Below, piece after piece: positions 10,808 to 61,132 of a DNA stretch of 64,000 bases (positions are counted from its first letter, which is position 1; each line of letters begins with the position of its first letter). A model generated the notes under the pieces. The model searched no databases and was not told the origin of the DNA. It saw nothing but the letters and a program-made list of their open reading frames with translations. The DNA comes from Patescibacteria group bacterium (GTDB lineage: Bacteria; Patescibacteriota; Kazan-3B-28). Where the stretch lies: assembly GCA_041389145.1 (NCBI GenBank), contig JAWKSK010000001.1, forward strand, positions 27,668 to 91,667. Reading direction: 5' to 3'. A program made the position numbers and the translations under genes.

Positions 10808-11320
10808 TTACGCAGAAGCGGACTGAGTAGCAGCAGAATCCATTCTGCGGCGTTCAACCACTTCCGTGACGAATCCTGGCTGGTTGGCCTCAATTCGTCG
10901 AGTGATGGTAACGAGGATGGGAAGTTCCTTGATCTGAGGAAAGACTTCTTCGAGCTCGTTAACCATGCGGATGACATCAATTCGATGCTGCTCCAGGTCA
11001 CATGGGTGTCCAGCACACTCTTCGTGGACATCCAGATGAAGGCAACAGGTTGGGTGAGCAGTCATGTAGATGCTCATATCAGCAAGGAAAGATGCCTTGC
11101 GATGTCCTTTGGTGACTCCAAACTGAGGGTCGCCATGAGGAGCTTCGGGGTCAAAATCTGCCTTGAAGTAGGCATCCGGACCAGGTGCGGTAAGAGTATC
11201 GAAGTTGATAACTTCAGGAAACTCTTGTGTACGCAGCTCGTCAGTTGGATCCTGTACGCGACCGTCACCACAGGTGATGGTAAGACCGATTGAACCGTCT
11301 AGTCGTTGATCGTAAGCCAT
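10808..11320 (-). CDS. Hypothetical Cys/His-rich protein (GC-richer unit)
   Basis: 170 aa; TCGDGR plus AHPTCCLHLDVHEECAGHPCD, a possible metal site loosely like the CxDxR/HxxC pair. Followed by its own terminator. Confidence 0.65.
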   Translation of the reverse strand: MAYDQRLDGSIGLTITCGDGRVQDPTDELRTQEFPEVINFDTLTAPGPDAYFKADFDPEAPHGDPQFGVTKGHRKASFLADMSIYMTAHPTCCLHLDVHEECAGHPCDLEQHRIDVIRMVNELEEVFPQIKELPILVTITRRIEANQPGFVTEVVERRRMDSAATQSASA

Positions 11321-11393
11321 ATTTCCCTAACCTGAATTGAATAATATTCGCCTGAGCGACAATATTGAAGTTACTCCTAATTTAAAAAACTGT

Positions 11394-11876
11394 CTAGAGG
11401 ATGGCTGAGAGAATAAAGGCGATGAGGAAGGTAAAGCCTAGAAGTAGGTTAGTAATTACACCTGCTAAACTGCCAATCACTCCCCCAACTCCAGCCCTTA
11501 AAGCAAGATGATCGGGCTTGTAGTCGTTGATTTCTGAAGCTACTACCCCTAAGAACATCCCAATAACCCCTCCAAAGGGTGGGAAGGTAAAGATTCCAAT
11601 CATAAGTCCAACCATTCCCCAACCAATAGATTTAGCTGAGGCACCTCCTAATTTGGCTCCCAGTAATCCAGAGAAGTAGTCGACGAAGAGAGAAAGGATA
11701 AGAATGATGGTAAGGATAGCCAACTCTCCCCTCTCTATTACGTTAAAGCTGGTAGTTAAGGCATAGATAACACCTAGTACCCACATATATGGGATACCTG
11801 GGAACATGGGAAGAATAATTCCAGCTAGACCTGGAAGCATAAGGGCTAAGGTGATAAAGAAAAATAAAATATCCAT
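11394..11876 (-). CDS. DUF456-family membrane protein
   Basis: 160 aa, 4 TM helices; N-terminal LPGLAGIILPMFPGIPYMW pattern. Confidence 0.7.
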   Translation of the reverse strand: MDILFFFITLALMLPGLAGIILPMFPGIPYMWVLGVIYALTTSFNVIERGELAILTIILILSLFVDYFSGLLGAKLGGASAKSIGWGMVGLMIGIFTFPPFGGVIGMFLGVVASEINDYKPDHLALRAGVGGVIGSLAGVITNLLLGFTFLIAFILSAIL

Positions 11877-13688: not shown

Positions 13689-14240
13689 TTAACGCAGATA
13701 ATCCTCCCACTTCTCGCGAAAGCGCTTGAAGTTGAAGTGCTTGACGATGATCAGGCTGGCCTGGTTGTCCACCAAGCGGTAGATAACCAGTGGACTTGTG
13801 GTGCACTCATTGTTGTCGAGGAACCATTCCCCAACGTTGAGGTCTGGGAATTCTCCACCCATAGCTTCGGATGAATAATCCCGGGCTACAATACCGTTTG
13901 CCAGTTTAATCGTGCCTCGATGATCAAGCTCAATGCGCTCATACAGGGGTACGGATGTCCAGAAACTATCGGCGAAATTGACGAACATCCCATCGGCGTG
14001 GTCGCCGGGTTCGTTTTCCACAACACCAACCAAGTTCTCGATTGGCTCATGGAAAGCAACGATGAAGTCTTCTAGCCTCACTATCTCGGAAGGCAGAACC
14101 GTGTCATCTCGATAGATGGTGCGTTCAACGCCTCCACCAATAAGTCTTGAGAAGTATTCCGGCATCGGAATAATCCTCATTGCAGGAAAATCTCTCACAA
14201 GCTTTTCCCACTGCTTTTTTGAAGTAATATGAACCATCAT
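13689..14240 (-). CDS. Hypothetical protein (GC-richer unit); weak SUKH/SMI1-like pattern
   Basis: 183 aa; strong SD GGAGGGGGAG; own promoter and terminator. WEKLVRDFPAMRIIPMPEYFSRLIGGG loosely resembles the SMI1/KNR4 N-terminus. Confidence 0.7.
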   Translation of the reverse strand: MMVHITSKKQWEKLVRDFPAMRIIPMPEYFSRLIGGGVERTIYRDDTVLPSEIVRLEDFIVAFHEPIENLVGVVENEPGDHADGMFVNFADSFWTSVPLYERIELDHRGTIKLANGIVARDYSSEAMGGEFPDLNVGEWFLDNNECTTSPLVIYRLVDNQASLIIVKHFNFKRFREKWEDYLR

Positions 14241-14390: not shown

Positions 14391-14414
14391 TTAACGGCTC
14401 ATTATTTTGAGCCG
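14391..14414. repeat. REP-like hairpin, copy 2 (AACGGCTCA-ttattt-TGAGCCGTT), overlapping the dus stop codon
   Basis: Same arms as the copies at 3800 and 45549. Encodes the last codons ..SNGSK* of the dus remnant. Confidence 0.75.
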
Positions 14415-15391
14415 TTGGAGTAAAGGAAGTTTTCTACGATCTGAGAAAGTTGCTCATAATCTGTTGCTTCCATAAGTTCTGCTCTGACCTTAGCGGCACC
14501 ATCAAAGCCGTTAACGTAGGCTTTGTAGTGCTTTTTCATAATATCTAAAGGTTTAATCTCCCCTAATAGATCTATGTAGAGTTTGGTGTGTTCTAACATT
14601 ACACGCAGTTTTTCAGCTACTGGGAGGTTTTCAACATCTACCTCTTCGTTATACAGCCAAGGATTACCAAAAATACCACGGCCAATCATAACTCCATCAC
14701 ATCCAGTCTCCTCTACTCTGGCCTTAGCTTCTTCTAAGTTTTGGACATCCCCATTGCCAAAGATAAGGGGTCGGTCTTTGGGGTCTGGGAAGAGTTCATG
14801 AGCGATTTCTACAGCTCGTTTAATGGTGCCCCATCTTGCAGGAACCTTAGACATTTCATTACGAGTACGGGCATGAATAGTTAATACGGCAGGTTGGGCT
14901 TCAATTAGCATTCTAATCCAGGTTTCGGTTTCGTCTTCACGGTATCCAGATTCAACATAATGTAACGGATACTGTAGATCACCAGCACCTGCCTTAGTAG
15001 CTACAACAACTTTTACTAGTTGTGTAAGTGCTTAATCAATCCAGCTCCAGCTAATGACTTTTCAATATCTTTAGAAGGACATCCTATATTGATATCAATT
15101 CCATCAAAACCAAGCTCTGCTATTGAGAGTTCTGCGGCTTTAGTAAAGTTTGGTTTACCACCAAAGATTTGAGCTACGATAGGTCGCTCTGATTCATCAA
15201 CCAAAGATCCGGTAACAGATTCTTTCCACCCCTCGGCCATCATAACAGACAAATTCGTCCATAAAACAGCGGTTTGCTAGTATTTGGCAATTAATTATCA
15301 ATGCGGCGTCGGTGACATCTGCTATAGGCGCTTGCACCATAATTGGTGTTGGCAAAATTGGCCCAAAATCCTTTGTGGATGCTATTTTCAT
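14402..15391 (-). pseudogene. dus: tRNA-dihydrouridine synthase, disrupted by at least 2 frameshifts
   Basis: Three fragments in different frames: MKIASTKDFGPILPTPIMVQAPIADVTDAA.. (15391 downward), ..ERPIVAQIFGGKP..IDINIGCP.. (15252-15016, ending in TAG TAA), and VKVVVATKAG..LTIHARTR..MIGRGIFGNPW (from about 15010 to 14402). Confidence 0.8.
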
Positions 15392-15412
15392 CCCAAATAA
15401 CCAATATATACT

Positions 15413-15454
15413 ACGGAAAGAAAAGAGGGTCGCTGCGGTGAGCAGCAACCCTCT
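15413..15454 (-). terminator. Strong intrinsic terminator closing the candidate RNA
   Basis: Minus strand AGAGGGTtGCTGC-tcacc-GCAGCgACCCTCT followed by TTTCTTTCC. Confidence 0.8.
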
Positions 15455-15881
15455 GACTTAAACCTTTAACAGGTGTAGCTTGTGGAAACACCTGCATAGG
15501 TAGATCCCCTGGGTATCCCTTAAGTCTATGGAGGAAGCAAGGTATGATACGGTATCTGCTAGAGAAGCTACCGACCGGCAAGCCCGCAGCTTTGCCTTGG
15601 GAGGCGAAGGGGGTTATGGGAAAACGGGAAATTGGAGTAGTTGGTAGCCAAAGCTTGAGTAAAGCCCGGGAGTTGATGACGGGATCACGTTGAATTTGTT
15701 CACCAACTCCCTAGACCTAAGCTTTTGAGGTAGCTTGCGCCCACCAGATACGGGATGGATGACCCGGTGGGGTATTTGTTGATAACTCACTTCAGGTTAC
15801 ATTTGGGGAATGAGTAAAGGGCAGGCTCCAGGTCATGCCTGGTTTATCTTTTTCCTATTTTCCAATCAAGGTTCGTGTGTT
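15455..15881 (-). ncRNA. Candidate structured RNA of unknown class (about 430 nt)
   Basis: No ORF on either strand. Many local helices, e.g. CCAGG/CCUGG, CCCACC..GGUGGG, GGGAGUUG..CAACUCCC, GGCAA..UUGCC, CAGGUG..CACCUG. Extended -10 (TGGTATATT, plus-strand 15888-15896) upstream and a terminator downstream. G-U pairs favour the minus strand. Confidence 0.5.
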
Positions 15882-16540
15882 ACCGGCAATATACCACAAA
15901 ATTATGAGAAAATAAAGACATGAATAAAAATCAATATTGGAATAGGGATTGGCGCATATTGGGAATTATAGTTTGTGGGGTAAAATAAAGAGTAATTCAC
16001 CAGTTGCAGAAATGTTAAAGAAAAGCTTGCCGCAAGTAGTGAGTGGTGAGCAGAAAATATACACTGCACAATTTCCAGGAATAGATAATCATTATAATTT
16101 TGATCTGTAATACCTTCTAGTTGGAAAGCAGAAGCAGTACCTGCGATAGATGCAATTAATTTCTACGATCCAAGAACAGAAGGAAGTAACTTAGAGCAAT
16201 CTCTGAATATTTGTATGTATTTTACAGCAAGTAGATTCCTAACTCACCACCGTGGATATTTTGGAACCAAAGAGAACTTGAGGTAGGAAGACCAGCGGTG
16301 GAATATGAGATTAAAAGCAGCTGGGATTGCTAACTTTGCAAGCTAGCCTAGCTGAGAAGGAACAACATATAGTTATAGATGTTCTAAAGTAACAGCAGCA
16401 ATAGCACATTCTATGTAATTGCAAAAACCCACAGTTAAGTGATGTTGTGTATCAAAGTTTTTAGACAACTTAGATTTAGATCCAAGTGAATGAAATTAGT
16501 TGGGCAGATCCAATTGCAGATTGGAAAAGGAGTGACCAAG

Positions 16541-16975
16541 AAACCGTTTGGAATTTACATCACACCTGCTACGTCCCCAGTTCAACCGAAAGTTTTGAAG
16601 GATATCACACGGCTATCGAGCAGAGTATGAAGATGGTGATGACCTGTCCCATATGTAATTGCTAATGGGAAACAGTTATTGCAAAAGCTGCTCAGGGATA
16701 TGGTAGTGATTGTGATAGACTACAGACCTTGGGCTGAAGTATATTCCTATATGCATATACAACAATCGATGTACTACTGACCAAGGGCAGGAACTATAGT
16801 TGGAGCAGGTGAAGAGATAGGAACATTAGCAGAGGGCTTTACACGCGCTTCTGGTGGTGAGAGAAAGCATCTGCATTTTGGAATGATAACAAATACCCAA
16901 CCACTATTGGCTGGGTATGTTGCAAATGAGTCAGAACTTACAAGCTGGTTAGATCCAGCAACAATTTTAGACTAG
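16541..16975 (+). pseudogene. M23 (LytM) family metallopeptidase remnant
   Basis: Own translation gives ESFEGYHTAIE (HxxxD-like), ..VIVIDYRPWAEVYSYMH.., an in-frame TGA at 16778, then AGTIVGAGEEIGTLAEGF..GGERKHLHFGMI. Several stops and frame changes. Region 15900-16540 is also ORF-free and probably the decayed N-terminus. Confidence 0.7.
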
Positions 16976-20530: not shown

Positions 20531-20605
20531 TGGGGCGTAGCCAAGTGGTAAGGCAATCGGTTCTGGTCCGATGATGCGTAGGTTCGAATCCTTCCGCCCC
20601 AGCCA
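20531..20605 (+). tRNA. tRNA-Gln (anticodon CTG), CCA encoded
   Basis: Hand-folded cloverleaf: acceptor TGGGGCG/CGCCCCA, anticodon stem ATCGG/CCGAT, loop TTCTGGT, T-loop TTCGAAT, 3' GCCA. Confidence 0.9.
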
Positions 20606-20613
20606 AAAGCAAG

Positions 20614-20640
20614 AAATCCGCTATAGTAGCGGATTTTCTC
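20614..20640 (+). terminator. Terminator after tRNA-Gln
   Basis: AATCCGC-tatagta-GCGGATT followed by TTCTC. Confidence 0.6.
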
Positions 20641-20657
20641 GATGTTATAATGTAATC

Positions 20658-21104
20658 ATGAAGAATTTGTTTAAATTTATTTTTGTTGCAACCCCACTTG
20701 TTCTATTACATATACTTATCCCTTTCTATGTTACAGATTCAAGCGGGAGTCTCTTTGGTTTATCTATGCCTGGTTCTATATCTACAGTATTAACATTTAT
20801 TGTTTACCTCTTGTTGGCATTTCTCGTTTCTTTTTACCTTTTTAAATGGTTAAAACACAAGACCAATATCAGCAAGACTTACCCTAAAGCATGGTGGTTG
20901 CTCATGACTGGTTCTTTGATTATCGGGTTCTTATTAACGGCAATGACTAGCGGAGCTGCTCTTGCCTTGCTATTCTTTGGTGCAAGCGGAGCATCCACAT
21001 CAGCGTTATACTACTTTCTTATAATTATTGAGAGTTTATTGTTCCCAATTCAATTAGGAATTATTGGTGGTGCTTTCATTGCTTATAGGTCGAAGTCGAA
21101 TTGA
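20658..21104 (+). CDS. Hypothetical membrane protein
   Basis: 148 aa from the ATG at 20658 (MKNLFKFIFVATPL..). The longer ORF start at 20571 overlaps the tRNA. 4 TM helices. Confidence 0.65.
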   Translation: MKNLFKFIFVATPLVLLHILIPFYVTDSSGSLFGLSMPGSISTVLTFIVYLLLAFLVSFYLFKWLKHKTNISKTYPKAWWLLMTGSLIIGFLLTAMTSGAALALLFFGASGASTSALYYFLIIIESLLFPIQLGIIGGAFIAYRSKSN

Positions 21105-21129
21105 TGATTGATAAATAAATTCTTTCCTG

Positions 21130-21152
21130 ACTTCCTCAACCAGCCCCAGCCA
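21130..21152. repeat. 23-nt direct repeat ACTTCCTCAACCAGCCCCAGCCA, copy 1
   Basis: Identical to 21471-21493. Shares GCCCCAGCCAA and CTTCC with the 3' end of tRNA-Gln. Confidence 0.85.
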
Positions 21153-21159
21153 ATAAAAG

Positions 21160-21538: not shown

Positions 21539-22456
21539 TTACTTCTGATTCAAGTGGTCAGAAGCAATTCCGATGATAAGGGCCAGATCATCAAGTGTGT
21601 TCGCTGTGCTTGTTTCTCCAGCAGCCCTTTCTCGAACAGCTGCCTCATTGATCTGACTCAAAATACCCCAGTTTGGATCTCTTGCCTTTTTCAGAACAAC
21701 TCTGGATGGGTTATTCTCCATGAGATGGTCCATGAGATCATTCCTAAGATCTCGCATTGAGAATAAACCCGCCTTGAGTTTGAGCACTTCCATCCAACCT
21801 ACGATAATTGGACGATCGATCCTCCATCCCGGAAGGGATTGAGTTAAACTTGATTCGAGTTCCAAGTATCTATCAATTGACTCTATCTGACTGTAAAATT
21901 TATATCCAATCACCCAGTCACTGCATTGACGCATGAGCACCGATGAACCGGCATGCCGATGACGTCTGATAAGTTCCATGATTGCAGATGCCTTATGGCA
22001 CATCATGGACGAAAACGTTCTGTTGCCCCAATATGTGTTGTGGACGTAAGAACCAAATCTCCAGTAGATTTCATTCCCCATACAATTAGGACACATCAGA
22101 TCGTGTTTGATGACTAATGCCATCTCGAACTCATCCGGACTTCCCTTGAACCCACAGGTTTTACACTTGGGATTGCAATGTGCAGGAGAAAGGTAGAATA
22201 TTTCCGGGCGATACGACTCCCCTGCGAAAAGCCCTTGTGCTTCTGTTCGTCGAGGAACTGGTTTGTACTTGACCAAACCTATCGCCTTGAGAAAATCTTC
22301 CTCGTATACATCCTTCATTCTACCCATATCGGCGCGAATAAGGATTAGGGGGTACTGAACATCTTGGCCTCGAAAGTAGTAGTCTTCTGAGAAATCCGGG
22401 CCAAAACACCAGTCTACGCCAAATTTGGGGCGTTCGTGTAAAGGTTCATGGTCCAC
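21539..22456 (-). CDS. Hypothetical zinc-ribbon protein (GC-richer unit)
   Basis: 305 aa; GTG start 6 nt after AAGGAGGTGA; CNPKCKTCGF..CPNCMG cysteine pairs. Confidence 0.75.
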   Translation of the reverse strand: MDHEPLHERPKFGVDWCFGPDFSEDYYFRGQDVQYPLILIRADMGRMKDVYEEDFLKAIGLVKYKPVPRRTEAQGLFAGESYRPEIFYLSPAHCNPKCKTCGFKGSPDEFEMALVIKHDLMCPNCMGNEIYWRFGSYVHNTYWGNRTFSSMMCHKASAIMELIRRHRHAGSSVLMRQCSDWVIGYKFYSQIESIDRYLELESSLTQSLPGWRIDRPIIVGWMEVLKLKAGLFSMRDLRNDLMDHLMENNPSRVVLKKARDPNWGILSQINEAAVRERAAGETSTANTLDDLALIIGIASDHLNQK

Positions 22457-22564
22457 AGTTCACCTCCTTAGGATGAGCTATCAGAATAAAAAACCAGATA
22501 ATCTCTTTTAGCATAGATATTTTTCTCTGTCTATAGGTAAGATATGATTTTTTCTAGTCTAGGA

Positions 22565-22593
22565 TTGACAAATCCTAACTTTTAACCTATAGT
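22565..22593 (+). promoter_or_regulatory. Promoter for the DEAD-box helicase
   Basis: TTGACA-N17-TATAGT. Confidence 0.6.
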
Positions 22594-22724
22594 ATTACCA
22601 CTTGCCTACTAGTTAGGTAACGGATGAATGCCGAGTTCATAGGAATTGCATAGTGCAATTTGTAACCAACATAATCTCGCTATTCATATGTCGAGGTTAT
22701 ATTCCTATAGAACGTAAGGTATTT

Positions 22725-23996
22725 ATGCGTAGATCATTTTCTAGTAGAAGAACAAATAGCAGTGGGGGTTATCGTGGTAGATCTAATTCAGGTCGGCCAG
22801 CTTTTAGAGGTAGTGCAACACCTAGAAGAGGTGGTGGAAGAAGTAGAAAACCAGCCCATAGAGGTGCATACATCAATCCGGCTAAGTACGTAAACAAGAT
22901 AGACAGCGCTAGAGTTGAAGATGTGTTTACTCCAAAACATAGATTTGAAGAGTTTGGGTTTAGCGACAAGTTGGTTAGAAACCTACTGGATAAAGGATAT
23001 GCAAATCCAACTCCGATTCAGGACGAAGCCATTCTACCTATTAAGGAAGGTAGAGATTTAATTGGGTTAGCAAATACTGGTACTGGTAAAACAGCTGCTT
23101 TCTTGTTACCAATTATTCATCAATTACAAACCAAACCTGCCAGAGAAGCAGTGTTAATTATTGCTCCCACTAGAGAGTTAGCAGGTCAGATTATTGATGA
23201 GTTTAGAATGTTTACCAAAGGACTCAACTTATCTGCAACCCTAATTGTTGGTGGCTCTCCTATGAAAAGACAGGTCCTGGCGTTGAAGAAACAACCAAAT
23301 GTCATCATTGGGACACCTGGAAGATTAAAAGATCTGGCTAACCAAAAGAAGATGTATCTGGGAAACATCAGAACATTTGTACTTGATGAAGCAGATCACA
23401 TGATGGATATGGGATTCTTGCCTGATGTTAGATTTATCATGGATCAGATTCCAACCAGACGTCAGTCACTTTGCTTTACCGCCACCTTGCCTAATGAAGT
23501 AGAGAAACTGATGAGAGATCTGTTATCTGACCCAGTTACCGTGTCAGTAAAAACTGGTAACACTAGCGACAACGTGGATCAAGATGTATTGTATGCCAAT
23601 AATGCAACAGAAAAAATTGACCAGTTAATTGAACTATTCGCTAAAGAAGATTTCTCTAAAATCTTAATCTTTGGAAAGACTAAACATGGTGTTCAAAGAC
23701 TGTCTGATGATTTGAGAAAAGCTGGCCTTAGGTCTGAAGCTATTCATGGAAATAAATCTCAAGCCCAGCGACAGAGAGCTTTAGACAACTTTAAGAAAGA
23801 TAGATCTAATATCTTAGTAGCTACTGATGTGGCAGCGAGAGGAATAGATGTGCCAAGCGTTAGTCATGTAATTAACTTTGACCAACCTAGTTCATATGAA
23901 GACTACATTCATAGAATTGGAAGAACTGGACGTGCAGGAAAATTGGGCAAGGCCTTAACCTTTGTTCCTATTGGAACTAAGATTGAACCTAATTAA
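22725..23996 (+). CDS. DEAD-box ATP-dependent RNA helicase with an R/G-rich N-terminal tail
   Basis: Q-motif PTPIQ, Walker A ANTGTGKT, VLDEADHM (DEAD), TAT (SAT position), HRIGRTGRAG. The ATG at 22725 is preferred over the GTG at 22653. Confidence 0.93.
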   Translation: MRRSFSSRRTNSSGGYRGRSNSGRPAFRGSATPRRGGGRSRKPAHRGAYINPAKYVNKIDSARVEDVFTPKHRFEEFGFSDKLVRNLLDKGYANPTPIQDEAILPIKEGRDLIGLANTGTGKTAAFLLPIIHQLQTKPAREAVLIIAPTRELAGQIIDEFRMFTKGLNLSATLIVGGSPMKRQVLALKKQPNVIIGTPGRLKDLANQKKMYLGNIRTFVLDEADHMMDMGFLPDVRFIMDQIPTRRQSLCFTATLPNEVEKLMRDLLSDPVTVSVKTGNTSDNVDQDVLYANNATEKIDQLIELFAKEDFSKILIFGKTKHGVQRLSDDLRKAGLRSEAIHGNKSQAQRQRALDNFKKDRSNILVATDVAARGIDVPSVSHVINFDQPSSYEDYIHRIGRTGRAGKLGKALTFVPIGTKIEPN

Positions 23997-24016
23997 TATT
24001 TAGAAAAATTAGGTTG

Positions 24017-24050
24017 AGAAAAGCCCCCGCATATAGCGAGGGCTTGTTGA
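24017..24050 (-). terminator. Terminator after 24068-25189, homologous to 21500-21533
   Basis: Minus strand AAGCCCTCGC-tatat-GCGGGGGCTT followed by TTTC. Two compensatory base-pair changes relative to the other copy. Confidence 0.7.
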
Positions 24051-24067
24051 GTTGTGAGTTGTTGAGA

Positions 24068-25189
24068 TTAGGTTCTAGGACCTCCATTCATGCACTGCTT
24101 CAGAGCATCCAGGATGCCGTCTTCAACTACTCCGGTCTCCTCCAGGTTGACCAGAGGGGTAAGCTCGGGGTCCTTCTCGGCGAGGAATTCGAGGAGACGA
24201 ACCTTGATATCTTTGAGCTGGTCAGAGATTTCATCCAACTTCTCATGCTCGAAGCGTGAGAGTTCCTGGCGAGTGTAGTCGATCCTCCTGAACTCTTCGC
24301 AGAGCTTGTAGGGCTCACCGCGAGTGTCAGTGAACATTTCCGCGAGTCGCCGGACCTTCTGGAATACCTCATTCGCAGCAAGGTACAGCTTGCGGAAGGC
24401 ATCAAGCTCCGAATGATCTTTTACCACGACCTTGAAGTGTCGTGTGGATTTGTAATCGACCTGAACCACCCGCTGCTCCACCACTTCCCTCAGCTCTGGA
24501 TCGTAGCAGAGGTAGGGGTCCCTACCTGATACCTGAACCCGGTCACTGAGAGTGGAGAGGGTTTCTCCTGAAATGCGAGTAGCGAACTTGATGAACGCAT
24601 ACTCGCGGTTGTTAACCTCGAAGTTGGTCGCTTCACCGATGACCATGTCACTCCCTGCCATCGGTGCATCGAACCCTAGACCAATTTCGTCCAGGTAGTA
24701 ATAGCCTCCGTAGCTGGGCTTCACAACCCCCGGAGTGCATATACAGAACGACGACTTGATCTGTTCGTCGAGGTAGAAAATGTCCTTCAGACCCCCGACG
24801 AGAACAGGTAACAGGTCTGCCGTGGTAGCCACGGAATCGTTGCCCACCTTGTAGTACCCCATCAGGGGAACCACCAGACCGTCAATCCATCTCAAGGTGC
24901 TGAGGTCAACCTCAACGCTCTCGAACCTGAATTCACTGCTCTGCCCAATCCAGAAACGATAGATCTCCATAAAGAAGATCAGTTCTGAGAAGTGGGTGTT
25001 GACGTCGTAGCCGATCTCTACCGCTATTCTGCGGAATCTAGCGCCCTTACGGACGATAGTCTTGGTGGAACGCATGATGACAGCCATGACAATGGCCTCA
25101 AATCCAGCGTTGTGCTTGATTCCAACCTCAATCATCCTGATGAGTCTAGGAGTCAGTACATCCTTAGGATTAAAGGATCTTGAAGACAT
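24068..25189 (-). CDS. Hypothetical protein (GC-richer unit)
   Basis: 373 aa; SD GGAGGTGG; own promoter and terminator; no recognisable motif. Confidence 0.75.
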   Translation of the reverse strand: MSSRSFNPKDVLTPRLIRMIEVGIKHNAGFEAIVMAVIMRSTKTIVRKGARFRRIAVEIGYDVNTHFSELIFFMEIYRFWIGQSSEFRFESVEVDLSTLRWIDGLVVPLMGYYKVGNDSVATTADLLPVLVGGLKDIFYLDEQIKSSFCICTPGVVKPSYGGYYYLDEIGLGFDAPMAGSDMVIGEATNFEVNNREYAFIKFATRISGETLSTLSDRVQVSGRDPYLCYDPELREVVEQRVVQVDYKSTRHFKVVVKDHSELDAFRKLYLAANEVFQKVRRLAEMFTDTRGEPYKLCEEFRRIDYTRQELSRFEHEKLDEISDQLKDIKVRLLEFLAEKDPELTPLVNLEETGVVEDGILDALKQCMNGGPRT

Positions 25190-25295
25190 AATCCACCTCC
25201 GAAATCTGGACCAGATAGGCCCAGGTGAGATTACTGATACTCACAACAAATTATATGGGTGCATCCTCGATGTTTTGGATTTGAGGATTCAAATA

Positions 25296-25324
25296 AGTGT
25301 ATAACAGTTTTACATTTTTGTCAA
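25296..25324 (-). promoter_or_regulatory. Promoter for 24068-25189
   Basis: Minus strand TTGACA-N17-TACACT, preceded by the mini-hairpin GCTC-tca-GAGC and a T-rich tract. Confidence 0.6.
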
Positions 25325-25371
25325 TAAAATACGCTCTGAGAGCCTATTTTATATGATATACAATTCTGTTA

Positions 25372-26508
25372 CTAACTCCTTCCGAGCGAATGGCGGTATA
25401 TTTCTTCTACCTCCTTAGCCATATTCTTGGCCGAAAACTTTCGAAGAGTTTCTGCGTAATGACTAACAATCTTCTTCTGAAGCTTCTTATCATTTAGGAG
25501 CTTTAGCATGGTAGCGCTAAGGTTTTTAACGTTCCCTGATTCAAATAGTAGTCCATTGTAGTTATCGGTGATTATTTCTGGGATACCCCCTACCCGACTA
25601 GCAATAATTGGGACTTGTGCCCGCATGGCTTCAAGGATAGATATTCCAAAGGCTTCAGAACGGGATGGAAGGATAAATAGATCCATACTAAATAGAGCTG
25701 TGTTTACATCTGCCAATGCACCTGCAAATCTCACTGAATCTTTTATATCAAGTTTTTTAACAAGGTTTTGAAGTTCTCTCAGTCGCTCCCCTTTTCCAAT
25801 AATCAGTAGTTTAGTGTTGGGCCATTTGGTGTGCATGTTGGCAAAAGCTTTTATAAGTACATCGGTATCCTTTTGTTTGTTTAAAGACCCAATGGTACCA
25901 ACTAGTAGATCCCTTGGTGATACATCCAAACTGGCACGATACTTTTTGATTGCTACTTCACTTGGCTTGGACTTGAGTGAATCAATTCCATTGTGAATAA
26001 TTGAAACTTTATCTGGTTTAGTGATACCTGAGCTGACCAAGAAAGTTCTTACAGAATCACTAACTGCAATAGTGTGATTGGTGAGACGATCCAACACTTT
26101 CATTGCCCGTAGATGAGTCCAGTGGAGAACGGGATTATTGAGTTTAAAGTTATCAGTATAGGTGTGTTCGGTATGGATATTGATTAAAGACAATCCACGG
26201 CTTGCTACTCTCCCCAATAAACCTGCTCTTTGACCATGAGTGTGGACAATATCTGGTTCATACTTTTGTAATAGTTTATGAATCGCTGAAGAAGCAGAGA
26301 GATCCGTCATCCCTTGCATGGGAACGGTGAATACTGGCACTTTCAGCTTCTTTAGCTCATCAACTAAATCGCCTTCGGGAAGGATAACAGAAACAACAAA
26401 CTGAGAACGGTCGATATGCGATAACAGAGCCAATAAATGTCTTGGGGCGCCGGTTAAAGAGCTGTCGGCGATGATTTCAAATACACTGATTTTAGATGTT
26501 CTTGGCAT
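25372..26508 (-). CDS. GT4-family glycosyltransferase
   Basis: 379 aa from the ATG at 26508 (MPRTSKISVFEII..). C-terminal E..FGISILEAMRAQVPIIASRVGGIPEII motif. The upstream 107 codons of the ORF overlap the neighbouring gene. Confidence 0.88.
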   Translation of the reverse strand: MPRTSKISVFEIIADSSLTGAPRHLLALLSHIDRSQFVVSVILPEGDLVDELKKLKVPVFTVPMQGMTDLSASSAIHKLLQKYEPDIVHTHGQRAGLLGRVASRGLSLINIHTEHTYTDNFKLNNPVLHWTHLRAMKVLDRLTNHTIAVSDSVRTFLVSSGITKPDKVSIIHNGIDSLKSKPSEVAIKKYRASLDVSPRDLLVGTIGSLNKQKDTDVLIKAFANMHTKWPNTKLLIIGKGERLRELQNLVKKLDIKDSVRFAGALADVNTALFSMDLFILPSRSEAFGISILEAMRAQVPIIASRVGGIPEIITDNYNGLLFESGNVKNLSATMLKLLNDKKLQKKIVSHYAETLRKFSAKNMAKEVEEIYRHSLGRS

Positions 26509-26527
26509 GACTTCATTATAACATTTT

Positions 26528-26557: not shown

Positions 26558-26581
26558 ATTTGGAATGGATTAGACCGGTGC

Positions 26582-45480: not shown

Positions 45481-45548
45481 AAAATATAAAAAAATGAATT
45501 ACCGTTTGGGCCCATATCCCCAAAGCCTTACTTATCTTACCAAAAATT

Positions 45549-45572
45549 AACGGCTCATTTTAGTGAGCCGTT
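45549..45572. repeat. REP-like hairpin, copy 3; here a functional-looking terminator
   Basis: The stem extends to AATTAACGGCTCA/TGAGCCGTTAATT, followed on the minus strand by TTTTGG. Confidence 0.8.
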
Positions 45573-45575
45573 AAT

Positions 45576-46013
45576 TTAGATTAACTTCTGAGCCTCTAAT
45601 ACCTTCCTAACGTGTAGATTCATAAAAATAAACCGTCCGGCCATAACTCCGGCAACCGTTGCAAAGGTAAAGGCAAGTAGGGCTGGTCCGTGAATCCAGA
45701 TACCAGCTATATATTTACGAGAAACTGAGAAGGCAATGTAGACTGCTAGTATCCAAAGCCCAGTTTTGTCCAAGCGGGATACTACTTTGGCATCATCTTC
45801 ATGCCAGAAGATGGTAAGCATTCGTCCGGCAAGGATACCACCCCCAAAGCCAATCAGAAGCCCCAGAAGAGCCAACCAGGGTGAGAGGATACCAACTATC
45901 ATGTCATATCCAACAACGCCTAATAAAACGATGCTAATAATCATAAATAGGCGAAGCTGGATGAGCAGTCGCCTATCGATATGTTTGTGGTTTTTAAGAT
46001 GTGAGAGATTCAT
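45576..46013 (-). CDS. Hypothetical 4-TM membrane protein
   Basis: 145 aa, hydrophobic. Confidence 0.65.
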   Translation of the reverse strand: MNLSHLKNHKHIDRRLLIQLRLFMIISIVLLGVVGYDMIVGILSPWLALLGLLIGFGGGILAGRMLTIFWHEDDAKVVSRLDKTGLWILAVYIAFSVSRKYIAGIWIHGPALLAFTFATVAGVMAGRFIFMNLHVRKVLEAQKLI

Positions 46014-46032
46014 TAGAATTTAATTATACATT

Positions 46033-46061
46033 ATAAAAAAACAGCCGGCTGGGAAGCCGGC
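46033..46061 (-). terminator. Terminator after 46084-46854
   Basis: Minus strand GCCGGCT-tccc-AGCCGGC followed by TGTTTTTTTAT. Confidence 0.85.
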
Positions 46062-46083
46062 CGCGTTGAATAGGGTGCTTGAT

Positions 46084-46854
46084 CTAGTGTGCAGATGCAT
46101 GGCAATTCAAATTCCGAATCACCAGCTGCGAAGGAGTCTTACCCTCCAGGTCGATGATCTTCGATGCCATTGAGACCAAGTTCTTTCCGATCAAGAGATT
46201 AAACATAGCATGGAGGTTAGCGGTAGGATCCGCATGCTCTATCCAGAGTGGATAGGGAGAGATGTTGAATGAAGGCAGAGGATCATCCTCCTCACTGTTA
46301 CCGAGATAGGTGTGGAAGCAATATCCAGTACCAGGTTCGGTAAGAATGGTTTCGAAGAAGTCTCTTGCTTCCTCGCCATCGTTACCTCTGCGCTGGGTCA
46401 GAAAGTAGGCCGTGCGTGACCCAGCCACGATAGCACCCGTAATTCTGGGGGTGTGGTTAGGTGCATCTGGCTCATAGGTAATCCCCCTCTGGTGGAGTTC
46501 GCCCTCAATGTCGTAGTTAGCCCGAATAGCCTCTAGTACCACCGGGGTTTGAATGCCATTACTTACGACATAAATACCATCAGACTCCGCCATTGCCTGG
46601 TAGATTATCAGGCTAGGATCTTTGACCTTGCTGGGGTCGAAGGCGTCGGTGTGCAGGTCACCATGAGCTTCTTTGTCAGCGACAAAGATGCGGTTGCGGC
46701 TGTTATCGCTCCTACCCATGATGGCGTAGAACTGAAATGCGTACCTTGGATCTGGACACAGCCCCTGAACGATAAGACGTCCAGGGTAAGGATTGGCTCT
46801 CAAGCATTTTGTGTTGCCTTTAAGCATGTCCTGCATAAACTGGGGTGCTGACAT
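46084..46854 (-). CDS. purO: IMP cyclohydrolase-like protein, archaeal PurO family (GC-richer unit)
   Basis: NPYPGRLIVQG..YAIMGRSDNSRNR..DPSLIIYQA..YVVSNGIQT..YEPDAPNHTPRI matches the PurO-family pattern recalled from memory. Confidence 0.65.
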   Translation of the reverse strand: MSAPQFMQDMLKGNTKCLRANPYPGRLIVQGLCPDPRYAFQFYAIMGRSDNSRNRIFVADKEAHGDLHTDAFDPSKVKDPSLIIYQAMAESDGIYVVSNGIQTPVVLEAIRANYDIEGELHQRGITYEPDAPNHTPRITGAIVAGSRTAYFLTQRRGNDGEEARDFFETILTEPGTGYCFHTYLGNSEEDDPLPSFNISPYPLWIEHADPTANLHAMFNLLIGKNLVSMASKIIDLEGKTPSQLVIRNLNCHASAH

Positions 46855-46953
46855 CCTTCTCTCCTTCTCTAGATTTAAAATAACAGCCCATGACTAGGTC
46901 ATGGGACTGATGGTATTAAATCAAATTGTAGATATTTTGTCTATCTGGAAGCC

Positions 46954-56356: not shown

Positions 56357-57202
56357 CTAAACCTCTTTGTTATAGATGAATATATTTTGTAATAGCTTTC
56401 GTAGATCTTGTGGAGAAAGATTCTTATAGGTATTTTCTCCATCTAGGAGATTGATGTCTCCAATGGTTTTATTGGATACAATAACAACTGCTTTGAGGTC
56501 TTTTGCTGCCCGCATAACGGAGGGGTTAGTGGTACTAAATAATACCTTAGCGTTTGGTTTAAACAGAGTTGATCCAGAAGCAACGATTTGGTTACCATCA
56601 ATGACTACAGCTCCCTTGCTTAAGGCTGAACCTGAATCGAAGAGATCGATAAGTAGGTCAGGGGTGAGTTGAGTGTTCATCTTATTACCGTTATCGATAA
56701 GACGGTTAACGTTTTTCCCCTTCTTGATAATGATTAACACGGGTTTTTGGGAACGAAGCAGAACTGCCATGGCTTCAGAGACAGATTTGATCATAGATTG
56801 AACATCGGCAGTGGACACGGGTTGAGCTTTATGGGTATGGGCCCGGCGTTTGAATTGAACTTCTAATAAGCTCTTAACCTCAGGGGCATAGAGGGTGGCA
56901 AGAGAAAGTAAACTAATCACCATTAGGACACCACCGAAGTAGAATAAACCCCAAAGACCCAAGAGGCGGGCAATGAGAATAGCGATAAGTAAAAAGATAA
57001 GGCGAGGGAGTACTTTGATAAGGTCAGACCTTCTAAGTTTTCTTACCAGCCAACCCAAGAGTAGAGCAATGGCAATAATGTCGATTATGCCAATTAGACT
57101 TAATTGGGTCGTGATAGAGTTCAAAAAAAGCTGCGCGGTGGTAGCAGCTTGATCGTATCCTGCCTTAAAAAAATCGACCAATGAAGTGTAATCGTTCATC
57201 AA
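56357..57202 (-). CDS. cdaA: Diadenylate cyclase
   Basis: 281 aa; 3 N-terminal TM helices plus a DAC domain (..SALSKGAVVIDGNQIVASGSTLF..). Confidence 0.85.
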   Translation of the reverse strand: MMNDYTSLVDFFKAGYDQAATTAQLFLNSITTQLSLIGIIDIIAIALLLGWLVRKLRRSDLIKVLPRLIFLLIAILIARLLGLWGLFYFGGVLMVISLLSLATLYAPEVKSLLEVQFKRRAHTHKAQPVSTADVQSMIKSVSEAMAVLLRSQKPVLIIIKKGKNVNRLIDNGNKMNTQLTPDLLIDLFDSGSALSKGAVVIDGNQIVASGSTLFKPNAKVLFSTTNPSVMRAAKDLKAVVIVSNKTIGDINLLDGENTYKNLSPQDLRKLLQNIFIYNKEV

Positions 57203-57605: not shown

Positions 57606-58409
57606 TTAGTTATTGGTAGAACCAACGATAACAACCACTTCAGTACTGGCGGAGGTTTCTCCTTCAGGTAAGGACTGAACGACCGTCGCACTAAGAGCTT
57701 TTTGGAGTTGTTCTACGTAGCTTGCTTTGCCTTCGGAAAGGTCAACAATAGTAATGCCAGAGTAGTTAGAGTTAGCAGCTTTGCTTAAACGAGTAACGTT
57801 AAAGGCATAGTTAGTGCTCAGGTTGTCACGGACTGGAACAGTTGCGTTTGGCTGAGATGAGCCATTACGAAGATCAATAGTAATCCTATCGGTTTGAGTG
57901 GTTGGAGGCTGAGATGTACCGTCTGCATTGTTATAGAAAACAGGACCAACGTTTACAACTCTATTGTTGTCTTCATCAAAGATGATGGCCTTACGTGAGT
58001 TTTGGTAAATGATGAGCTTGTCGCCATCATGAGCATCCTTGTAGAAATCTTGGTTGGATGCCAGTAGCTCAACGTCGTTGATAATAGCTACAACAGGATT
58101 CTTTTCTTGTGGAAGTACTAAAATCTTACCCACCTTTTTAAGTAGTTCTTGGGTTTGCTCTTCATTTAATCTCTGAGCAAGACTAGGATCTTTGAGTACT
58201 TCTACCTCCTTCTTTACTGACTGATAGTTAAAGAAAGACCAAGCAAAAGCTCCGAGTGCTAGGACTAATAAAGAAATAAGCAGAATATTGCTGCCATTCA
58301 TGGTTTTTCCCCCGGTTCTAGAGTTGGTTCTTGCGGCCATAGTATTAAAATTAGTCGTTAGTTGATACAAGGTGATGATAGCAGAAAAAAAGACAAGGAA
58401 AAAGGGCAC
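57606..58409 (-). CDS. LytR_C-domain membrane-anchored protein
   Basis: C-terminal ITIDLRNGSSQPN..ITIVDLSEG..VVVIVGS pattern. The true start is probably the ATG at 58340 or 58301. Confidence 0.65.
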   Translation of the reverse strand: MPFFLVFFSAIITLYQLTTNFNTMAARTNSRTGGKTMNGSNILLISLLVLALGAFAWSFFNYQSVKKEVEVLKDPSLAQRLNEEQTQELLKKVGKILVLPQEKNPVVAIINDVELLASNQDFYKDAHDGDKLIIYQNSRKAIIFDEDNNRVVNVGPVFYNNADGTSQPPTTQTDRITIDLRNGSSQPNATVPVRDNLSTNYAFNVTRLSKAANSNYSGITIVDLSEGKASYVEQLQKALSATVVQSLPEGETSASTEVVVIVGSTNN

Positions 58410-58465
58410 CCCGCAGGGTGCCCTTGTGTCTCATTAGAGACTTTGGTTTCTTTCACATGGAAGTA

Positions 58466-61132
58466 TTAGAGACTGCCACAGAACAGCTTTGCATCGTAGG
58501 TTGCTGACGCCCCGTCCCAGTCCAGGACCGTGTCCATGTAGGAAAGCTTACCGCCGGCACTGCTAAGGACTGACCTGTAACCAAGAGCAGTTACAGGAAT
58601 TGACCTGCTAAGGTCGGTTAGCTTCCATACACCTTCACTCGTCGTAGCATCAATGAAGTTCTGCTCAGCATTCTCTGTGTCGACTCCAGTCACGTGACCG
58701 GTGCTAAGACAGTAGACATACCAAGGAGCAGAGCCTGATGCGCGAACAGCGTAGGTGAGGATGGGAATATCGGAGCCTCCGACTGATGCCACTTCCATCC
58801 CAGGATACCCGTACTGTGGGCCACTGGTAGCAGTAAGGTTGATGGTTGTCCATTCGCCTACTGTTGGATTGGAGTTGGCTGAGTAGGAGAACTGAAGCCG
58901 TTGATTCTGTGCTGAGAAAAGCCACAGTAGATCATTACCCACAGCAAGCCTCGTAGAACCACTTATGCCCGTTGGGACAGTAATGGTCCAGTTGCCACTT
59001 CCCGAAGGGTTAGCGGTGTTGGCGCAGGCCACCGAGAGCTCCCCGCCTACCATGTAGGAAAGACGGGGTTCGTAGGTGCTCAGGGCATTGAGACACAGAA
59101 GACCCACCGAGCCAGATGCAGTGATAACCGTATGGCTTCCACCACCTACCTCATAGTATTTCAGGTCCGCATTGCCTGTTCCAGAGCTGTAGATGATGGT
59201 AACGGTTCCGTTGATGACCTTGATATCAGTTGCATTGCCGGGCTGGTATACCAGGTTCTCACCTGAGTAGCTGCAACCTTCAATCAGAGTTTCTGAAATC
59301 GATCCATCACTGGTGTCGTAGGCGTACAGTCTCAGACCCTCGCTAGCACTACCTGTATTGGTTGACAGGAAGTACAGGGTGCCACTATCAAATGTAGCGG
59401 CAACGAGAGTACCAGTATCAAGCGTTACATTGTCATCAGCAGTACTTGAACCGTTCGTCCAGGCATAGACGTCATAGTTGGTCTCATCGCTAACGACCAT
59501 ATAGACGTTGTTACTGGAATCATTGGCTTGAATACTGTTGATGTGACCCGTAACCGATCCTGCATCCGCAAGCGGAGCAATGAACAGGTTACAGTACGCC
59601 CACTGGCTTTCTGAACTAAACACCTCAGAGTCGTTCGGGTTGGTATAGTTCGCAACCAGCTTGTAGACCAGGTGTGGATCAGTAACCGCAGACACATCAT
59701 GAGTGTATGTGGCAACGTCGCCAACGTTAACGTCAACCCATGTTGCACCGCCATCATCTGAGATCTTCAGGGTATAGGCGTCAACAGGCTGTAGACTCTT
59801 GACCCAGGCCACTACGACTTGCTGGTTTGCATCGTCATAGACCGCGGTAATGCTAGTAGCAGGCAGTAGACTGTCCTGGTGTGCAGGCTGATCCGTCTCT
59901 ACCCACACGCTAAGCCCATCATTGTTCAGGCCTTGTACGTAGTAGTGAGTAGTACCGGCCTTAGGTGGCACAGACTGGAGAGCAACGTTGTCGATGCTAT
60001 CCATGTACTGTTCCACTTCAGCTGCCTTACCTCCAATGAAAGTGCTATCCCCCTTGACATAGGTCTTGGTGTTCGGATTAGCATCCAGATCGAAGTCCCA
60101 TTCCACAAGGGTCGATGGACCCTCATAGACCTCAGCGCTGGCAGATGCTGACTTAACAGCAGTTGATCGAACATTGAACATATATCCGCCGGTTCCGCCG
60201 AAGTAGGGTAGGTCCTGATACCTAGGAACGACTGTGAAGCGAAGCGCTTGGTCAATGCTTTCACCATCAACTATCTGGTCCTTGATAATCGCAGTGTCAT
60301 TGGTTACTAGCCAGTAGCGACCAACCGCACCGAACATCATAGGCGAAAACCGTCGCTGGTTCCCCACCCAACCTTCCAGTTCTTCAAGAGTAGCAGGAGG
60401 TTGGATGAAGGGATCATTGAGTTTCACGGTATACTCAGATCCCGCAGTAAATACCTCGCTGATTCTCTTAGGAGGCACAAAATCGTTGACCGATTTTGTG
60501 CTTCCAAGATATACCCACTCGGTGATACCGGAGGCTGACTTGCCGGAAGACCCGAACCAGTCAACGCGTAGGGTCTGGAAGTTGGAAACTCCAAGATAAG
60601 CAACACCTACTCCGCCGACCTCGAAACTCACATCAATGGCGCCGTTGGCACCCCAGGGCGAGTTATATGCTCGCATGATATAAGTCGGATCGGAGGAAAG
60701 TGGTCCTGACTCCATAGGACTTGCCCATACGCTATTGATGAAGCTGGATGTGCCCTTGCTGACTAGCCTGGCGACTTCCTCTGCTTCATAGATCTCGTAG
60801 GCATCCTGGTCGCTCATAGAGCTCACGGTACGGTAGTCGTCCGGGTTGAAACTCGGTCGACCTTGATCGTTGAGGCCGTTGTTGGCCATCAGATTACCAG
60901 GGTCGTAAAGATGGTTCTTCATCTCCCTGTAACTCAGATTTGCGAGCCCTTCGTAAAGACCATCGTCAATCTGAGGCGAAGTTGACTGCTGGCCTTCGCT
61001 GCCAGTCATCTGAGGTGTGAGTTCCGTGCTGATGCCAGTGGGAGAACCACCGCCACCGCAGGAAGCCAGTCCCAGGATCACGAACAGAACCAGAGTCTTG
61101 AGACTCCAATTCTGAATCCAATTGCGTGTCAT
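58466..61132 (-). CDS. Large surface lipoprotein, hypothetical (GC-richest unit)
   Basis: 888 aa from the ATG at 61132, 8 nt after GGAGG. Lipobox LGLASCGGGG. Beta-rich repetitive sequence. Confidence 0.8.
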   Translation of the reverse strand: MTRNWIQNWSLKTLVLFVILGLASCGGGGSPTGISTELTPQMTGSEGQQSTSPQIDDGLYEGLANLSYREMKNHLYDPGNLMANNGLNDQGRPSFNPDDYRTVSSMSDQDAYEIYEAEEVARLVSKGTSSFINSVWASPMESGPLSSDPTYIMRAYNSPWGANGAIDVSFEVGGVGVAYLGVSNFQTLRVDWFGSSGKSASGITEWVYLGSTKSVNDFVPPKRISEVFTAGSEYTVKLNDPFIQPPATLEELEGWVGNQRRFSPMMFGAVGRYWLVTNDTAIIKDQIVDGESIDQALRFTVVPRYQDLPYFGGTGGYMFNVRSTAVKSASASAEVYEGPSTLVEWDFDLDANPNTKTYVKGDSTFIGGKAAEVEQYMDSIDNVALQSVPPKAGTTHYYVQGLNNDGLSVWVETDQPAHQDSLLPATSITAVYDDANQQVVVAWVKSLQPVDAYTLKISDDGGATWVDVNVGDVATYTHDVSAVTDPHLVYKLVANYTNPNDSEVFSSESQWAYCNLFIAPLADAGSVTGHINSIQANDSSNNVYMVVSDETNYDVYAWTNGSSTADDNVTLDTGTLVAATFDSGTLYFLSTNTGSASEGLRLYAYDTSDGSISETLIEGCSYSGENLVYQPGNATDIKVINGTVTIIYSSGTGNADLKYYEVGGGSHTVITASGSVGLLCLNALSTYEPRLSYMVGGELSVACANTANPSGSGNWTITVPTGISGSTRLAVGNDLLWLFSAQNQRLQFSYSANSNPTVGEWTTINLTATSGPQYGYPGMEVASVGGSDIPILTYAVRASGSAPWYVYCLSTGHVTGVDTENAEQNFIDATTSEGVWKLTDLSRSIPVTALGYRSVLSSAGGKLSYMDTVLDWDGASATYDAKLFCGSL

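Follow-up and report, generated by a model that had tools for sequence, protein, structure and literature searches.

The DNA analysed here, a window of 64,000 nucleotides from contig JAWKSK010000001.1, belongs to a metagenome-assembled genome (MAG) of the Patescibacteria related to candidate division Kazan. It carries GC-rich genes interspersed in a backbone of conserved genes, and several of them are lined up as an array of cassettes between the genes for GltX and a GT4 glycosyltransferase. The GC content of the window is 43.3%, and the nearest species-representative genome is that of a candidate division Kazan bacterium, with a GltX identity of 64%. For comparison we used about 19 related loci (L001–L019), whose backbone proteins are 41–99% identical. 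Backbone gene order is shared among L001–L005 and L013–L019, and the run comprising the DAC-domain gene (diadenylate cyclase domain, 56357–57202) and the genes for YbbR, an exonuclease, PheS, PheT, GyrB, Alr, CTP synthase, rpmA, a methyltransferase and SHMT recurs in each relative. What differs is the content of the slots, by which we mean fixed positions between conserved transcription units that hold one or a few GC-rich genes. The GC-rich genes are exactly where the compared genomes differ from one another.

A first-pass annotation, made from the letters of the window, had proposed a mosaic of GC-richer units and backbone on the basis of ten hand-counted samples of 60 nt, all of which we found to be correct within 1.3 points. 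Samples of this length cannot carry the claim, because the spread of 60-nt GC tiles across the window (standard deviation 0.067) nearly equals that expected by chance (binomial standard deviation 0.064). We therefore rest the mosaic on GC content at third codon positions (GC3) in the 55 open reading frames (ORFs) of the window. Per-gene GC3 was overdispersed (chi-square 514, 54 degrees of freedom), and a mixture of two components with means of 0.386 and 0.574 was preferred to a single component (Bayesian information criterion -116.9 versus -108.7). No gene lies between 0.475 and 0.523; nine genes lie above this gap and span 0.52–0.65, with the backbone near 0.39. The annotation had named a lack of bimodality as the outcome that would speak against it, and bimodality is what was found. 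The distinct codon preference that it described proved stronger than claimed. CTG accounts for 0.36 of leucine codons in the rich class versus 0.08 in the backbone and TTA for 0.02 versus 0.23, and the G-ending codons AAG (0.73 versus 0.38), GAG (0.58 versus 0.22) and CAG (0.82 versus 0.42) are shifted in the same way, as are TTC (0.73 versus 0.38) and G at four-fold sites (0.207 versus 0.087, 2.4-fold). The total GC of the rich-class genes is 0.49–0.52. The codon signature adds a tenth member, the gene at 10808–11320 (TTA 0, CTG 0.27). Measured by GC3 and codon usage, ten of the fourteen units listed by the annotation were retained, and rpmA, 21539–22456, 27072–27419 and the small ORF at 26582–26893 were removed (Table 1). 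Intergenic GC was 0.40 beside rich genes versus 0.36 elsewhere, so that the enrichment sits in coding DNA. Regional GC drift was ruled out, as the non-coding flanks are barely GC-richer, mostly because of terminator stems.

Table 1. Features of the window, with coordinates counted from its first nucleotide
Feature	Coordinates	Strand	GC3	Remarks
tmRNA-3′-end-like fragment (GGTGCAATTCCCC GATGCTCCACCA)	30016–30040	-		15 nt after the GltX stop; marks the array start
Cassette 1, nearest GltX	29334–29966	-	0.588	True start probably further in, after an AAGGAG ribosome-binding site; promoter-like site TTGACA-17-TAGAAT at 29985–29957
Inter-cassette module 1	29183–29222	-		Hairpin, then GATGCTCCACCA
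Cassette 2, predicted secreted protein (signal peptide)	28336–29082	-	0.610	Terminator at 28297–28273
Inter-cassette module 2	28204–28251	-		Hairpin, then GATGCTCCACCA
Cassette 3	27694–28089	-	0.523
Inter-cassette module 3	27566–27609	-		Hairpin TCTTAGATAAGTTCCAACCTCATCTAAGA, then TGCCACCA
Cassette 4, nearest the GT4 gene	27072–27419	-	0.474	Backbone-like codons; not rich class
Small ORF with two CxxCxGxG motifs	26582–26893	-	0.413	Backbone-like; probably the fifth array gene of the first-pass annotation
Pro_CA_2 gene (putative carbonic anhydrase, weak match)	10808–11320	-	0.468	GC 0.513; rich-class codons; terminator at 10754–10732
Orphan gene, 183 aa	13689–14240	-	0.565	Terminator at 13672–13651
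Gene for a fast-evolving cytoplasmic protein of unassigned function	24068–25189	-	0.652	Most GC3-rich gene; likely start at 25135
Lipoprotein gene (dockerin and PKD domains) at 36195–37133	inserted unit 36030–37191	+	0.616	Own promoter-like site and terminator
103-aa gene beside the sortase gene	37252–37563	-	0.529	GC-rich by GC3 and codons
IMP cyclohydrolase-like gene at 46084–46854 (Pfam PF07826, E = 5e-32)	inserted unit 46018–46953 (936 bp)	-	0.560	Upstream terminator, ribosome-binding site, gene, strong terminator
890-aa predicted lipoprotein	58466–61138	-	0.543	GC3 0.49–0.60 in every 100-codon block; terminator at 58425–58402
rpmA (ribosomal protein L27)	42126–42386	+	0.414	Not rich class; total GC of 0.464 comes from GC1 of 0.575
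Gene listed by the first-pass annotation	21539–22456	-	0.464	Intermediate, backbone-like codons; not rich class

The annotation had left it open whether these genes were acquired independently or form an expression class with a codon bias of its own. Strong terminator-like hairpins follow seven of the units it named (10808, 13689, 28336, 36189, 46084, 58466 and rpmA), and the array genes, 24068, 36189 and rpmA are preceded by promoter-like sites (score 9–11 of 12), as it had described; the totals of promoter-like sites in these regions, by contrast, showed no excess over shuffled expectation. Consensus-like promoter sites, strong ribosome-binding sites and terminators around many rich genes, together with a preference for C-ending codons in NNY boxes, are what one might cite in favour of a highly or specially expressed class with translationally selected codons. 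However, rpmA, the ATP synthase subunits, GyrB, CTP synthase and the tRNA synthetases GltX and PheS/T all use backbone codons, as does every housekeeping gene that could be recognised (GC3 of ribosomal protein, ATP synthase and tRNA synthetase genes 0.32–0.48), the rich class is made up of variable, hypothetical proteins for which homologues are few or lacking, and the strong preference for NNG over NNA and the 3–4 fold rise in NCG look compositional. We regard an expression class as very improbable; the GC-rich genes are flexible genome.

Two GC-rich units are plain insertions, with exact boundaries, that are missing from a near-identical sister genome. The IMP cyclohydrolase unit is absent from L013 and L014, where the stop codon of GyrB (98–99.7% identical) overlaps the start of a 145-aa gene, and also from L002–L004. 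Its best non-self match is 44–48% identical, and the named matches are from Clostridia, Paenibacillus and other Patescibacteria. The lipoprotein unit 36030–37191 (its gene was taken as ORF 36189–37133 in the GC3 analysis and is called 36189 here) is missing in L013 between the sortase gene (37652–38452) and the PEGA-domain gene (34475–35887), although these neighbours are 91–95% identical; homologues at 34–35% identity occupy another slot, beside GT4, in L005 and L008. Two unrelated small GC-rich lipoprotein ORFs stand in L013 at the place of 37252. For the orphan at 13689–14240, the sole match among 5.8 billion proteins was the protein itself, and Pfam, PHROGs, PADLOC and NCBIfam gave no match. 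Informative domain matches among the GC-rich proteins are confined to the IMP cyclohydrolase-like protein (46084), the weak carbonic anhydrase match (10808) and the dockerin and PKD domains of 36189, and none of the ten GC-rich proteins matched PHROGs, PADLOC or NCBIfam. Both 36189 and 58466 begin with lipoprotein-type signal sequences.

Independent acquisition is thus supported for most of the set, since the IMP cyclohydrolase unit, 36189, 37252 and the array are absent or replaced in relatives with 85–99% identical flanking genes and 13689 is without homologue; the exceptions are 24068, 58466 and 10808, which misfit a simple recent acquisition and are taken up below. The same kind of landing site, also proposed by the annotation, holds loosely, in that the units sit at junctions between transcription units and often at terminators, but a repeated site was found only at the array and at an AT-rich insertion beside a tRNA-Gln gene. 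Beside these units, the GyrB–Alr interval (45481–46953 in the window, 17870–18535 in L002 and 14646–15925 in L018) is a variable slot throughout the clade, its contents differing per genome and being mostly GC-richer. The intermediate gene at 21539–22456 is lineage-specific; in L005 and L017 the corresponding region holds other genes, none of them homologous to it.

As the source is a MAG and several GC-rich proteins occur on this contig only, we considered whether pieces of other organisms had been spliced into the contig during assembly or binning. Independent assemblies of other samples (L005 and L015–L017) nevertheless have GC-rich genes in these very slots, flanked alike, 10808 is found in the same context on five further contigs, and each insert is bounded by precise intergenic points, beyond which the backbone continues intact in both directions. 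An artefact of this type is hardly credible.

The contrast in composition is repeated in the relatives. On the sister contigs, core ORFs have a GC3 of 0.394 (n = 34), divergent homologues of 0.643 (n = 5) and ORFs without a homologue in the window of 0.505 (n = 16), and the core differs from both flexible groups pooled (Mann-Whitney p = 2e-6). More distant relatives show the same contrast between core and flexible genes. The mosaic is therefore a property of the flexible genes of the clade and not of this contig. The taxonomy names of Kazan genomes include figures between 44 and 52, which we take to be GC percentages. A GC-richer member of the clade is L019, which has the same gene order (PheT 45% identical) at 52.6% GC, with a backbone GC3 of 0.55–0.65, a CTG share of leucine codons of 0.3–0.4 and frequent G-ending codons for Lys, Glu and Gln, so that its whole-backbone composition matches the rich class of the window. 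Most transfers detected in aquifer Patescibacteria run between Patescibacteria (PMC12455944). On account of these transfers and of the composition of L019, GC-richer members of the clade are a plausible source pool.

The array (27072–30054) consists of single-gene cassettes, each followed by a terminator and then by a module of about 95 nt (90–100 nt). The module begins with the 29-nt hairpin TCTTAGATAAGTTCCAACTTCATCTAAGA, which has one bulged base and folds at -7.1 kcal/mol as DNA (z = -3.9); TGCTCCACCA follows, and then a short hairpin with a T-run and the promoter-like site of the next gene. The conserved module ends in GCTCCACCA, which is the 3′ end of tmRNA, and every module shares this sequence and the sequence downstream of it with the tmRNA end. 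Within the window the module is confined to the array, and the other GC-rich genes are without it. All cassettes have one orientation, and TTGACA-17/18-TAnnAT sites precede each of them, so that they are not promoterless. The 25-nt fragment at 30016–30040 aligns with the 3′ end of a real tmRNA gene in L007 (Rfam RF00023, 147 bits; missed by ARAGORN) and is also found after GltX in L005 and L017, but is absent from the more distant L001. In the array of the window itself, Rfam detected no partial tmRNA or other RNA family.

In the GltX–GT4 slot the cargo differs completely among relatives. The slot is empty, with 234 bp, in the Kazan genome L001, and houses four unrelated genes in L005 and another four in L017, and the module recurs between entirely different genes in L005, L006, L008 and L017; in the last module before GT4 of L005 and L008 the hairpin is kept and divergence begins after GATGC. 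In L007 an array starts directly at the full-length tmRNA gene (last bases GGGGGTGCAATTCCCCCCAGCTCCACCA) and ends beside smpB, and its second cassette is cassette 3 of the window. The shared unit (28251–27566) is 84.6% identical over 688 nt to L007 6097–5410, between the tmRNA gene and smpB, and the match stops at both modules. By the Nei-Gojobori method, the synonymous divergence (dS) of this cassette from the L007 copy is 0.42, compared with 1.9–2.6 for the backbone against the apparently same-population contigs L008 and L005 (the GT4 of L005 is 98% identical to that of L008), a comparison in which L007 is assumed, from the shared metagenome, to belong to the same population. Cassette 2 has no homologue in any relative's array. 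Cassette 4 has a homologue in the same array position of L017 (77% identical, dS 0.40, ratio of nonsynonymous to synonymous divergence, dN/dS, 0.34), and the region of the small ORF 26582–26893 aligns with L017 in one unbroken match. From the GltX end GC3 falls along the array in the order 0.588, 0.610, 0.523, 0.474 and 0.413 (a small sample), and it is the far-end cassette that L017 shares.

Three observations made around the array and beyond it are recorded here. Over 22549–34498, backbone dS against L017 is 0.25–0.62 on the GltX side and 1.2–1.4 on the GT4/DEAD side, a shift that places a breakpoint of backbone homologous recombination at the array. The GT4 ORF (25372–26829, 485 aa) carries a spurious N-terminal extension of about 108 aa, the orthologues of L005, L008 and L017 having 378 aa and a start, MPRTSK, that corresponds to window position 26505. 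Finally, directly 3′ of tRNA-Gln(CTG), within 20596–21153, lies a 537-bp insertion (20606–21142) that carries a single AT-rich gene for a 148-aa membrane protein (20658–21104, GC3 about 0.37) and has on both sides the 11-nt sequence GCCCCAGCCAA, a direct repeat of the 3′ end of the tRNA; in L005, which is without the insertion, the tRNA adjoins the sequence that follows the insertion in the window.

The modules of the array and its arrangement at a tmRNA end fit a series of site-specific insertions at an attachment site that matches the 3′ end of tmRNA, and the layout is what would be expected from such a process, in which both a recombinase and the act of recombination would have to be supposed. 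Cassettes would be joined by recombination at the site that copies the tmRNA 3′ end (hairpin plus GCTCCACCA), the recombinase would be encoded elsewhere in the genome, and new cassettes would enter at the tmRNA-like end while older ones drift towards host composition. The GC-rich codon usage would in turn mean that the genes came from a gene pool with a GC content above the 43% of the host, or are still being exchanged with it. All in all, we consider it likely that the GC-rich genes make up the flexible, or accessory, fraction of a small and collinear Kazan-like Patescibacteria genome, mostly with a promoter-like site and a terminator of their own, that they turn over far faster than the backbone, that their GC content derives from a GC-richer pool and that the array cassettes are joined at the tmRNA-end site. 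The compositional mosaic itself is explained. We also entertain, more tentatively and with rather more doubt than belief, that Kazan-like Patescibacteria carry an undescribed integron-like gene-capture system. In such a system, cassettes with their own promoter and terminator would be inserted serially at the tmRNA 3′ end, at a decoy copy of it by gltX and, similarly, at tRNA-Gln; an outside recombinase would read the bulged hairpin and GCTCCACCA; and the cassettes, taken from the clade's GC-richer pool, would be the main route of renewal for secreted and surface proteins.

The three genes that misfit a simple recent acquisition behave differently from one another. In the sister contigs L009–L012 the 10808 gene has the same context and 93.5% aa identity; its dS is 0.14, compared with 0.84–1.17 for the flanking genes, and it lies inside a tract of about 1.2 kb (roughly 10450–11600) of raised nucleotide identity. 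These values indicate that the tract was recently exchanged between lineages. Discordant dS was seen for 10808 and 27694. The 24068 gene, in the slot between the GT4 gene (25372–26505) and the DEAD-box helicase gene (22653–23996), had only two matching clusters, its own and one other, among 1.84 billion representatives, and its predicted structure reached a mean pLDDT of 37 (from a two-sequence alignment). Homologues occupy the same slot in L017 (59% identity) and L005 (38%), between neighbours that are 85–94% identical, and GC3 is 0.65–0.69 in all three lineages. Its dS (1.26) agrees with that of its neighbours (1.19–1.43), whereas its nonsynonymous divergence (dN) of 0.262 is three to seven times theirs (0.036–0.088). 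The 58466 gene has same-position homologues that are 42.6% identical in L015 and L016 (neighbours 83–91%) and 23% identical in L003 and L004, all with GC3 of 0.55–0.61, and its centre (59576–60984) cannot be aligned at the nucleotide level. With regard to vertical conservation beside the same neighbours, which the annotation had held to speak against its reading, 24068 and 58466 have same-position homologues, and most of the other genes are absent or replaced in relatives. In L002 (1817–3852), three tandem paralogues of window gene 57606–58409, one of them annotated as LytR_C, stand where the window and other relatives carry the large GC-rich lipoprotein. A diversity-generating retroelement was rejected as a source of divergence, as Pfam scans showed no reverse transcriptase and the divergence is spread over whole proteins; template and variable repeat pairs were not searched for.

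A vertically inherited 24068 should have drifted towards a GC3 of about 0.39, because its synonymous sites would have turned over under the mutation pressure of the host; in none of the three lineages has it done so. Either each lineage imported a separate allele, which saturation of dS would hide, or GC is maintained locally. The latter can be extended to the whole class: a gene-specific force, such as gene conversion with a GC bias where slots recombine readily, or selection acting on synonymous sites (for instance for G/C-ending codons or mRNA properties), would keep GC high in place, with no foreign origin implied. It would account for same-position homologues of 24068 and 58466 that are GC-rich in every lineage despite saturated synonymous sites (proportion of synonymous differences, pS, 0.61–0.76), and it agrees with the demonstrated recombination activity of slots, with an enrichment concentrated in coding rather than flanking non-coding DNA and with the same bias in the flexible genes of all relatives. 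It does not agree with the neighbour of 10808 at 10439–10684, which lies inside the exchanged tract and yet has the lowest GC3 of the window (0.293), nor with GC shifts that are abrupt at gene boundaries, with flexible genes that are AT-rich, or with recent insertions that are already fully biased, such as the IMP cyclohydrolase unit, absent from the sister with 98–99.7% identical GyrB. The array, moreover, shows a gradient towards host composition. We judge maintenance in place unlikely as a general explanation.

Turnover of flexible genes drawn from a GC-richer pool is itself confronted with several observations that weigh against it. A dS equal to that of the neighbours combined with a GC3 of 0.65–0.69 in three lineages would require, for 24068, either separate replacement of the allele in each lineage or some maintenance of its GC, and 58466 poses the same problem; 10808 is present in the sister population and does not share the variable presence of the other genes. 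Not all flexible genes are GC-rich, as the tRNA-Gln insertion, a second and independent 3′-end insertion in the window, is AT-rich, and so is a 323-aa gene of L013 (9282–10253, GC3 0.30), located between SHMT and a thioredoxin-like gene where the window has only a tRNA-Leu. No recombinase domain (integrase or transposase) was detected in about 50 scanned window proteins, covering every slot and its neighbours, or in nine ORFs of L007, and the divergence argument for cassette 3 depends on the assumed population of L007. Around the seven singleton units the longest flanking repeat was no longer than chance, and no donor was identified for any GC-rich gene. A phage or plasmid origin was rejected for want of support, in searches that reach only fairly close relatives: in IMG/VR neither the module nor a close relative of any of four proteins turned up, and phage and plasmid collections gave no blastn match to the array.

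Flexible islands of the additive and replacement types are described in Alteromonas and other free-living bacteria, at fixed positions in collinear genomes (PMC4898812). At additive hotspots, different cassettes accumulate beside tRNA or tmRNA genes and the 3′ end of the gene is left behind as a repeat; in replacement islands, one and the same place is filled by versions that are unrelated or strongly divergent and often encode surface structures; and cassettes may be more similar between lineages than core genes are (PMC4898812). The features of such islands were found here as atypical composition and as variable content at fixed positions, and the tRNA/tmRNA feature was found for the array only, besides the AT-rich tRNA-Gln insertion. 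The window units differ from these islands in being single genes of 0.5–2.7 kb instead of multi-gene clusters, in having a higher GC than their host and in belonging to a tiny genome; no integrase was seen, and one array stands at a pseudo-site, with only a 25-nt copy of the tmRNA end. A survey of aquifer Patescibacteria reported hundreds of islands and individually transferred genes (PMC12455944). That work is a survey of composition and phylogeny, without slot-by-slot turnover of single genes or arrays at tmRNA ends, and a search of its text gave no mention of integrase or tRNA.

Two further kinds of system resemble the array in layout. Integron arrays, including attC arrays without an integrase, are made of single-ORF cassettes with hairpin repeats and variable cargo. 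The window array is alike in having single-ORF cassettes in one orientation, a conserved bulged-hairpin repeat, cargo that differs wholly among close relatives and, seemingly, its newest members at one end. It is unlike an integron in that no IntI-type integrase lies nearby (GltX is on one side and the glycosyltransferase on the other), the core of the module is the tmRNA acceptor end GCTCCACCA, and each cassette has its own promoter-like site and terminator. Module ends showed neither the R''-L''...L'-R' layout of attC nor GTTRRRY or RYYYAAC boxes. The layout works like that of an integron, but the array is not an integron. Tandem elements that are flanked by att sites and lack an integrase, such as cis-mobilisable elements in the accretion model of Streptococcus integrative elements, likewise consist of units bounded by direct repeats, without a recombinase of their own, stacked at one site. 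Direct repeats of this type are present here, as the units are bounded by copies of the end of the target gene and the shared cassette ends at the modules. Those elements, however, measure several kb and go back to integrative conjugative elements that have decayed, whereas each window unit is one small gene with a 90–100 nt junction.

Some features outside the slots are also noted. The CTP synthase ORF of L013 (4466–5446) looks truncated (326 aa, of which 197 align), and that of L014 is intact as far as the contig covers it. At 14402–16966 of the window, a dihydrouridine synthase gene is seemingly split into three frames (14402–14911, 15016–15252 and 15197–15448), followed by about 1.5 kb (15449–16966) without a long ORF or an Rfam match; the region could be a pseudogene with decayed DNA, the result of sequencing errors or an undescribed element. 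Inside the ATP synthase operon, at 6111–6701, a gene for a 196-aa protein of no clear family, predicted to be membrane-bound or secreted, is flanked by ORFs read from the sequence as the genes for the gamma and alpha subunits. The large protein encoded at 61295–63895, which contains a Peptidase_S74 domain (the chaperone domain found in fibres of the endosialidase type), is of odd composition (GC2 0.50, GC3 0.31); as its homologue in L016 (666–6146) has 1826 aa, the copy in the window could be split or incomplete.

The genomes of Patescibacteria are tiny and highly collinear, and these bacteria depend on other cells, which raises the question of how they gain new functions; at this locus the variable fraction, fast-changing genes in a handful of fixed slots, can be read gene by gene. 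Codon usage alone picks out the variable genes and offers a cheap flag for the flexible genome in MAGs of the clade; several of the genes so marked encode predicted secreted or lipid-anchored proteins. Arrays at tmRNA ends without an integrase and hyper-divergent genes that are always GC-rich are the most notable points that remain. The cassette array at the tmRNA end suggests a concrete mechanism of gene capture, and a clean contrast between repeated import and locally maintained composition is offered by the hyper-divergent genes, whose GC stays high in all lineages.

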